Shown here: positions 56,002 through 56,103 of the stretch, in pieces
How the letters are laid out: each line of letters begins with the position of its first letter
How positions within the stretch are numbered: the stretch's first letter is position 1
Assembly: GCF_041248615.1 (NCBI RefSeq)
Contig: NZ_CP158426.1
Strand: one strand, 5' to 3'
Length of the DNA stretch: 64,000 nt
From: Escherichia coli
GTDB taxonomy: Bacteria > Pseudomonadota > Gammaproteobacteria > Enterobacterales > Enterobacteriaceae
Program-made: the position numbers and the translations under genes
The notes under the pieces: model-generated
Databases searched by the model: none
What the model saw: the letters and a program-made list of their open reading frames with translations, nothing else
Told to the model about the DNA's origin: nothing

Positions 56002-56103
56002 ATGAAAGAGAATAAAGTACAACAAATCAGTCATAAACTGATTAATATCGTTGTTTTTGTCGCAATTGTAGAATACGCCTATTTATTTCTCCATTTCTAT
56101 TAA
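56002..56103 (+). CDS. ykgR: small membrane protein, 33 aa
   Basis: ATG 56002 with AGGAAG SD; MKENKVQQISHKLINIVVFVAIVEYAYLFLHFY, single hydrophobic helix; below ORF-track size cutoff. Confidence 0.55.
   Translation: MKENKVQQISHKLINIVVFVAIVEYAYLFLHFY

Follow-up and report, generated by a model that had tools for sequence, protein, structure and literature searches.

The 33-codon reading frame upstream of ykgM and ykgO in an Escherichia coli chromosome is ykgR, very probably a free-standing small-protein gene confined to the genus Escherichia

In a 64-kb stretch of an Escherichia coli chromosome (64,000 nucleotides, hereafter the window), an open reading frame (ORF) of only 33 codons lies between a flavin oxidoreductase gene and ykgM. 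The question it raises is whether so short a frame is a gene and, if so, which gene it is, how it might be controlled, and what its product might do. A prediction made from the sequence had described an ATG at position 56002 with AGGAAG at the right spacing, followed by a polar head and one hydrophobic helix, and had recognized in it the small membrane protein YkgR. We conclude that the ORF at 56002-56103 on the plus strand is very probably ykgR as a free-standing small-protein gene confined to the genus Escherichia.

The coding sequence comprises 33 codons and a TAA, beginning with the ATG at 56002-56004 and ending with the stop codon at 56101-56103, after which a second TAA follows. An in-frame TAA at 55984-55986 makes 56002 the earliest possible start. 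As read from the sequence, a Shine-Dalgarno motif, GAGGAAG, occupies positions 55990-55996 of the plus strand; its AGGAAG ends 5 nt before the ATG, and the Shine-Dalgarno region (GCGAGGAA) is invariant in all seven Escherichia sequences that were aligned. Residues 1-12 of the encoded peptide form a polar N-terminus with K2, K5, and K12 and have a mean Kyte-Doolittle hydropathy of -1.6, while residues 13-32 reach +2.05. AlphaFold2 predicted one continuous helix over residues 3-32 with a pLDDT of 93.9. Residues 13-32 are a single transmembrane helix, with the N-terminus in the cytoplasm and the carboxyl-terminus in the periplasm. The start, the ribosome-binding site at its spacing, and the division into a polar head and one hydrophobic helix are therefore as originally described.

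The length of the ORF alone is unremarkable, as the region 54000-58500 contains 75 ORFs of at least 20 amino acids. Among the 228 ATG-initiated ORFs of 25-50 amino acids in the window, 5 are preceded by a Shine-Dalgarno core and 5 encode a 19-residue stretch with a hydropathy of at least 1.9. Only the ORF at 56002 has both, and this combination of features is not what chance gives.

The peptide, MKENKVQQISHKLINIVVFVAIVEYAYLFLHFY, is identical in 33 of 33 residues to YkgR of MG1655 (b4671, YP_002791238.1), and the DNA of the ORF differs from K-12 ykgR by one synonymous base, without gaps. It matched the NCBIfam equivalog NF041474 ("small membrane protein YkgR") with 78.1 bits, against a cutoff of 40 (E = 2.6e-22), and did so over its full length, with residues 1-33 on profile positions 1-33. 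A Pfam scan of the 33-amino acid peptide gave no match in a release that is probably older than PF28062 (YkgR), the precomputed Pfam family carried by ykgR orthologues. Over the 901 bases around the ORF, the window agrees at 100% identity with several E. coli chromosomes, in which RefSeq labels the position "ykgR: small membrane protein YkgR". The 33-codon ORF is an already annotated and experimentally studied gene, and the original prediction named it correctly without naming anything new. Its label "ykgR-like" was right about ykgR and too weak in its suffix, since the gene is ykgR itself; that the ORF was "unlisted" held for the ORF list used for the prediction, but not beyond it, because the gene is annotated in both RefSeq and K-12.

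In MG1655, ykgR is found at 313,141-313,242 on the minus strand and adjoins ykgM/ykgO. The gene order in strain CFSAN061763 is LysR, LysR, alpha/beta hydrolase, NADH-dependent flavin oxidoreductase, ykgR, ykgM, ykgO, ykgL (on the minus strand), ecpR, ecpA, ecpB, and ecpC, and the ORFs of the window give the same order. In all three sequences, ykgR precedes ykgM-ykgO-(ykgL)-ecpR, points the same way as ykgM-ykgO, and is on that side of the ecp operon where fdeC/eaeH lies, and the orthologous position was also seen in 10 further E. coli contigs. K-12 ykgR thus has the same 33-amino acid sequence, Shine-Dalgarno sequence, upstream block, and position 5' of ykgM-ykgO-ykgL-ecpR as the gene in the window. 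The 2 loci differ on the 5' side of ykgR, where the window carries intact genes for an alpha/beta hydrolase (306 amino acids) and an NADH-dependent flavin oxidoreductase (380 amino acids) at 53295-55530, whereas K-12 keeps only a 90-bp remnant of ykgP, which shows the window to be from an E. coli other than K-12.

Because K-12 annotations have listed ykgR as b4671 for years, and curated NCBIfam and Pfam families exist for it, finding it again has little discovery value. It does provide a calibration point, in that a reader of raw sequence chose, out of 228 ORFs of that size in the window, the one that is a real small-protein gene. The present analysis adds the restriction of ykgR to Escherichia, a conserved upstream module with a covarying hairpin, the independence of ykgR from ykgMO, and a truncated second copy.

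Of 5,426 complete E. coli genomes, 5,072 carry the ykgR region, and in 4,903 records it reaches an identity of 99% or more. When 60 records were drawn from the whole range of the ranking, 59 had ykgR annotated at the matching position. Two exceptions that were inspected proved to be deletions or truncations mediated by IS1. A HMMER search of 1.84 billion representative proteins returned 9 matches, all of Escherichia type. Most of these are artefacts, being frameshifted or read-through versions or adapter chimeras; P0006 ends in Nextera adapter sequence and P0009 comes from an indel-ridden E. coli assembly, and neither was counted as an orthologue. From the artefact matches, only the 5' part of L004 was accepted as one. 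One genome from each of 100,044 species was scanned with a single exact degenerate DNA pattern of the helix core, which diverged homologues could escape, and matches came from Escherichia only, bar contaminant contigs: E. coli, Escherichia albertii, Escherichia whittamii, Escherichia sp. E1V33, and a divergent strain labelled "E. coli" (L008). The contigs set aside were L007 (NZ_MPDK01000122.1, 403 bp, filed under Sulfoacidibacillus thermotolerans) and L011 (NZ_VLXZ01000260.1, 264 bp, filed under Alkalicoccobacillus porphyridii). As both are identical to K-12 ykgR DNA, they are almost certainly laboratory E. coli contamination. Matches on plasmids belonged to F-prime plasmids or to chromosomes filed as plasmids and were not taken as mobile copies of ykgR.

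In each of these five lineages the frame has exactly 33 codons. Pairwise dN/dS values among them range from 0.02 to 0.20, and the 23 variable columns are distributed 5/1/17 over codon positions 1, 2, and 3. E24, Y25, Y27, and H31 are invariant across the genus, and variation falls on H11 (N in four lineages) and several aliphatic positions. In alignments with other Escherichia species, identity is 26-41% far upstream, 85-92% (up to 99%) in a block of 116 nt immediately before the gene, 89-91% in the ykgR ORF, 40-48% with more than 100 gap columns in the spacer between ykgR and ykgM, and 87-89% in ykgM, so that ykgR is conserved at the same level as ykgM. Even in K-12, identity in the spacer falls to 90% and 8 columns are gapped, while the ORF aligns without gaps. 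A conserved ORF and block between poorly conserved flanks, together with the bias toward third positions, are characteristic of a protein-coding gene that has a control region of its own. Judged by these substitutions, the frame is under purifying selection, and its retention at 33 codons in five Escherichia lineages gives no refutation of the original prediction.

What might the conserved block before the gene contain? In the alignment of 7 Escherichia sequences, conservation sets in sharply near 55886 and extends for about 116 nt up to ykgR. The distal part (55886-55925, plus strand) holds two direct repeats and a CRP-like site, all candidate sites for a regulator, and includes the sequence TTGTGATACA, which is invariant in that alignment. 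The repeats, TGTAATACAT (55889-55898) and TGTGATACAT (55910-55919), are exactly 21 nt apart. TGTAATACAT sits within the palindrome GATGTA-A-TACATC, while TGTGATACAT is invariant across Escherichia and resembles a CRP half-site. The repeats may be operators for some regulator. The CRP-like pattern TGTGA-N6-TCAAA at 55910-55925, which includes TGTGATACAT, is not significant alone, with 1 match in the window against 0.51 expected and at least 1 in 37 of 100 shuffles. Downstream of it, at 55929-55958 on the plus strand, lies the promoter-like stretch TTGGTTGACC...TTATATAAG, for example TTGGTT-16-TATATA, which is nearly invariant across Escherichia. A consensus sigma-70 scan of the conserved block called no promoter, and position and conservation are what suggest a promoter within this stretch.

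The block also contains a hairpin, GCACTT-ACG-AAGTGC (55960-55974, plus strand), followed by ACTC and then by six T residues at 55979-55984. This arrangement looks like a terminator, but it ends 6 nt 5' of the Shine-Dalgarno sequence. It was the only terminator-like match in 55400-56900, where shuffled sequences gave a mean of 0.9. In a consensus fold, the stem is kept in six closely related Escherichia sequences with a single covarying pair (AU in 2, GC in 2, and GU in 2), and the other changes in the stem are G-U wobbles, which pair only in the RNA of the plus strand. The single-sequence fold of the leader, at -11.8 kcal/mol (z = -1.67), is not significant alone. A second helix, pairing the U-tract with AUGAAAGAG, was dropped, as it showed no covariation and was broken in L008. 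An Rfam scan of the region found no family, its sole match scoring 15 bits against a gathering threshold of 117. Since it comes directly behind the best -10-like sequence, and since strains and species differ in the genes found upstream, the hairpin most likely belongs to the ykgR mRNA, as a stem-loop at or near its 5' end, rather than to another gene as its terminator. A leader attenuator is a less likely alternative.

These elements can be assembled into a broader scheme that we consider, taken as a whole, unlikely. In that scheme, the block of about 116 nt would be a dedicated control module that confines YkgR synthesis to stationary phase or carbon limitation, built from two helically phased TGTRATACAT sites, one of them CRP-like, and from the covarying hairpin and U-tract that precede the Shine-Dalgarno sequence. 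In it, the hairpin would be either a leader attenuator or an element of 5' stability. An old duplication of the module would have left, as its scar, the truncated second copy of ykgR that lies 19 kb away and is described below.

On the 3' side, the flank of ykgR is 64-76% identical between species. It contains an inverted repeat, CCTCTCCC / GGGAGAGG (56150-56157 and 56185-56192), with a 27-nt loop. No T-run follows the repeat on the plus strand and one, ATGCATATTTTTT, follows it on the minus strand; the repeat is assigned to neither strand. The arms are kept with changes in E1V33 and L008 (CCTCTCCC.../GGGAGGGG) and less clearly in E. whittamii and E. albertii. A search for a terminator 3' of ykgR found no clear one. 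The spacer at 56191-56425 evolves fast, and its ORFs of 69 amino acids on the minus strand and 88 amino acids on the plus strand are broken by indels in K-12; neither the spacer ORFs nor those antisense to ykgR gave a Pfam match.

Beyond the spacer, a promoter-like site for ykgMO, TTGAAA-17-TATCTT, is found at 56400-56428, and the same promoter hexamers have been listed for this operon (PMC3946193). It is followed by a perfect 18-bp palindrome (the TTATGTTATAACATAACA region) at 56433-56450, directly 5' of ykgM, which by its position and form fits a Zur operator of ykgMO. The palindrome was also noted to overlap the promoter-like site at 56400-56428. Neighbors of ykgR vary on both sides. Downstream, E. 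coli, E. albertii, and L008 have ykgMO next to ykgR, but in E1V33 an integrase-like ORF takes its place, and in E. whittamii no ykgM was found within the 637 nt of sequence available 3' of ykgR. On the 5' side, the window has the flavin oxidoreductase gene, other E. coli have FdeC or the ykgP remnant, and E. whittamii has a BhsA-like gene. Because the 5' neighbors vary and ykgMO is not always adjacent, ykgR appears as an autonomous module at a variable junction rather than as a leader of ykgMO.

The protein itself has been made and handled in several studies. Plasmid-borne YkgR with a carboxyl-terminal His-tag was detectable after induction, and YkgR(V6pBpa) made in vitro cross-linked to the signal recognition particle (SRP) after release with puromycin, a cross-link that was lost once membranes were added (PMC7549839). 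YkgR is too short for co-translational targeting and is bound by SRP after leaving the ribosome, from which the authors concluded that SRP recognizes it post-translationally; insertion via FtsY to SecYEG or YidC was shown in the same work for the model protein YohP (PMC7549839). RseP cleaves YkgR, a class I substrate that scored positive in each of the four assays used, in vivo and in vitro alike; the same study gives its topology as N-in/C-out, from prediction as well as from experimental examination (Table S1 in PMC10470546). Reviews describe it as induced in stationary phase (PMC10502375), and as a periplasm-facing fusion anchor it gave high yields of about 25 mg/L (PMC7558204). YkgR has become a model substrate in work on post-translational SRP targeting and on RseP cleavage. 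No physiological function is given for it in these four papers (PMC7549839, PMC10470546, PMC10502375, and PMC7558204).

Several other explanations of the locus were weighed against this evidence. The frame might have arisen by chance in a non-coding, AT-rich spacer, with 33 codons happening to follow a purine-rich run, and short ORFs are plentiful enough for this, given the 75 of at least 20 amino acids in 4.5 kb and the 228 ATG ORFs of 25-50 amino acids in the window. However, only 1 of the 228 combines a Shine-Dalgarno core with a transmembrane-grade stretch, and both frame and length are kept in five lineages, with dN/dS at 0.02-0.20 and 17 of 23 variable sites in third positions. The adjoining spacer gains indels (8 gap columns against K-12) where the ORF gains none, and published studies have produced the protein, cross-linked it, and seen it cleaved (PMC7549839, PMC10470546). 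We consider a chance origin extremely improbable. A coding frame of this size could also specify a type I toxin, that is, a membrane-damaging peptide like Hok, Ldr, Ibs, or TisB that is silenced by an antisense RNA. Size and the single hydrophobic helix are alike, and HokB and HokE are, like YkgR, small N-in/C-out peptides that RseP cleaves as class I substrates (PMC10470546). A promoter-like TGGAGA-17-TACAAT on the minus strand (56093-56065) would yield an antisense RNA across the start of the ORF; it is, however, one of 3 matches against 3.9 expected by chance, and its hexamer reads TACAAC in other Escherichia species because of the I22V codon change. No antitoxin RNA family appeared in the Rfam scan, and ykgR is single-copy apart from one dead fragment, whereas the toxin families are multi-copy. 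YkgR has been produced from pBAD and detected without reported toxicity (PMC7549839), and no toxicity was noted for the fusion anchor at about 25 mg/L (PMC7558204). Unlike HokB and HokE, then, YkgR has neither a conserved antisense promoter nor a match to an antitoxin RNA family, its over-production is tolerated, and it has no C-terminal periplasmic domain, all of which makes a toxin highly improbable.

Two further explanations concern ykgMO and the transcript itself. The frame could serve the zinc-starvation operon ykgMO as a leader peptide or an upstream ORF, with its translation controlling read-through into ykgM, or YkgR could act in zinc homeostasis. It is read in the same orientation as ykgM from 358 nt upstream, with no convincing terminator between them, and the two remain neighbors in E. 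coli, E. albertii, and L008; laboratory selections have also repeatedly hit the spacer between ykgM and ykgR, with an IS1 insertion at K-12 position 313109 (PMC5818497) and, in a ydgH suppressor, a T>C change (PMC11705850). Yet ykgMO has its own promoter-like site and the Zur-box palindrome (56433-56450) directly before ykgM, conservation across the locus is lowest in the spacer (40-48%, more than 100 gap columns), and ykgR is kept without adjacent ykgMO in E1V33 and, over the 637 nt available, in E. whittamii. Since H11 is not conserved, being N in four lineages, the N-terminus lacks a conserved metal ligand. There is very little chance, in our estimate, that ykgR works for ykgMO or for zinc. 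The short ykgR transcript might alternatively double as a base-pairing regulator, like AzuCR or SgrS. In favor of this, the non-coding DNA directly before the gene equals the ORF in conservation (85-92%), the leader hairpin has a covarying pair, and a ykgR transcript would be short. Such a dual-function RNA has to contend with the empty Rfam result, the lack of a clear intrinsic terminator to end the ykgR transcript, and the available supplementary text of an E. coli 3'-end mapping paper, which gives no 3' end near ykgR. Most of the conserved block probably precedes the transcription start, so that promoter and operator DNA is a simpler explanation of its conservation than a regulatory RNA, and we hold the latter to be very unlikely.

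For a free-standing ykgR, the following course can be proposed. The strong Shine-Dalgarno sequence would drive translation of the 33-codon ORF into a single helix, with a short lysine-rich N-terminus and a hydrophobic segment of 20 residues. The gene would be transcribed alone from the conserved stretch of about 116 nt directly upstream, giving an mRNA with a stem-loop at or near its 5' end, and it would lie outside the Zur-controlled ykgMO unit downstream. In stationary phase, the helix would dock onto a larger inner-membrane protein or complex and alter the activity or stability of this partner, with the invariant polar residues E24, Y25, Y27, and H31, in or at the end of the helix, as contact surface; RseP would set the lifetime of YkgR. 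We put the chance that YkgR is such a transmembrane modulator of a larger inner-membrane protein in stationary phase at somewhat under even.

The partner model is drawn by analogy with MgrB, AcrZ, MgtS, and CydX, and from the four invariant polar residues. MgrB acts on PhoQ, AcrZ on AcrB, MgtS on MgtA, and CydX on cytochrome bd, in each case as a small-protein modulator of a membrane protein. They share with YkgR the size class, the single transmembrane helix, and the inner-membrane location, and MgrB and CydX have, like YkgR, also been scored as RseP substrates (PMC10470546). YkgR has no sequence similarity to any of the four, however, and no named partner, so that they provide a model of action and not a family assignment. 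Similarly, YohP (27 amino acids) and other single-helix E. coli proteins induced in stationary phase or under stress are very short and span the membrane with one helix, as YkgR does, and both YohP and YkgR are recognized post-translationally by SRP (PMC7549839). The two proteins show no sequence relationship, and cellular effects have now been proposed for YohP, whereas none are known for YkgR. For the search for a partner and for the regulation of ykgR, the restriction to Escherichia, the invariant E24, Y25, Y27, and H31, an upstream block conserved like the ORF, and the independence from ykgMO provide handles.

A second, partial copy of ykgR was observed in about 850-900 of about 5,070 E. 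coli genomes, including some that are 100% identical to the window. In E. coli O157:H7 PV15-279, this copy (L023:39355-39423) is located about 19 kb downstream of ykgR and is annotated in RefSeq as an N-terminally truncated ykgR pseudogene. It adjoins LysR, alpha/beta-hydrolase, and MFS genes beside paoABCD. The copy matches window positions 56034-56151, from codon 12 to about 48 nt past the stop codon, at about 88% identity and has no in-frame start. It has the look of a remnant left by an old duplication or rearrangement. Separately, IS1 insertions have deleted or truncated ykgR itself in the isolates F5656C1 (L003) and JNEC-KY203 (L012). In one of these strains, everything from ykgR through ecpR is gone, and in the other, only the last 39 nt, at the 3' end of the ORF, are left. 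As these losses occurred in natural isolates, ykgR is dispensable in at least some strains.
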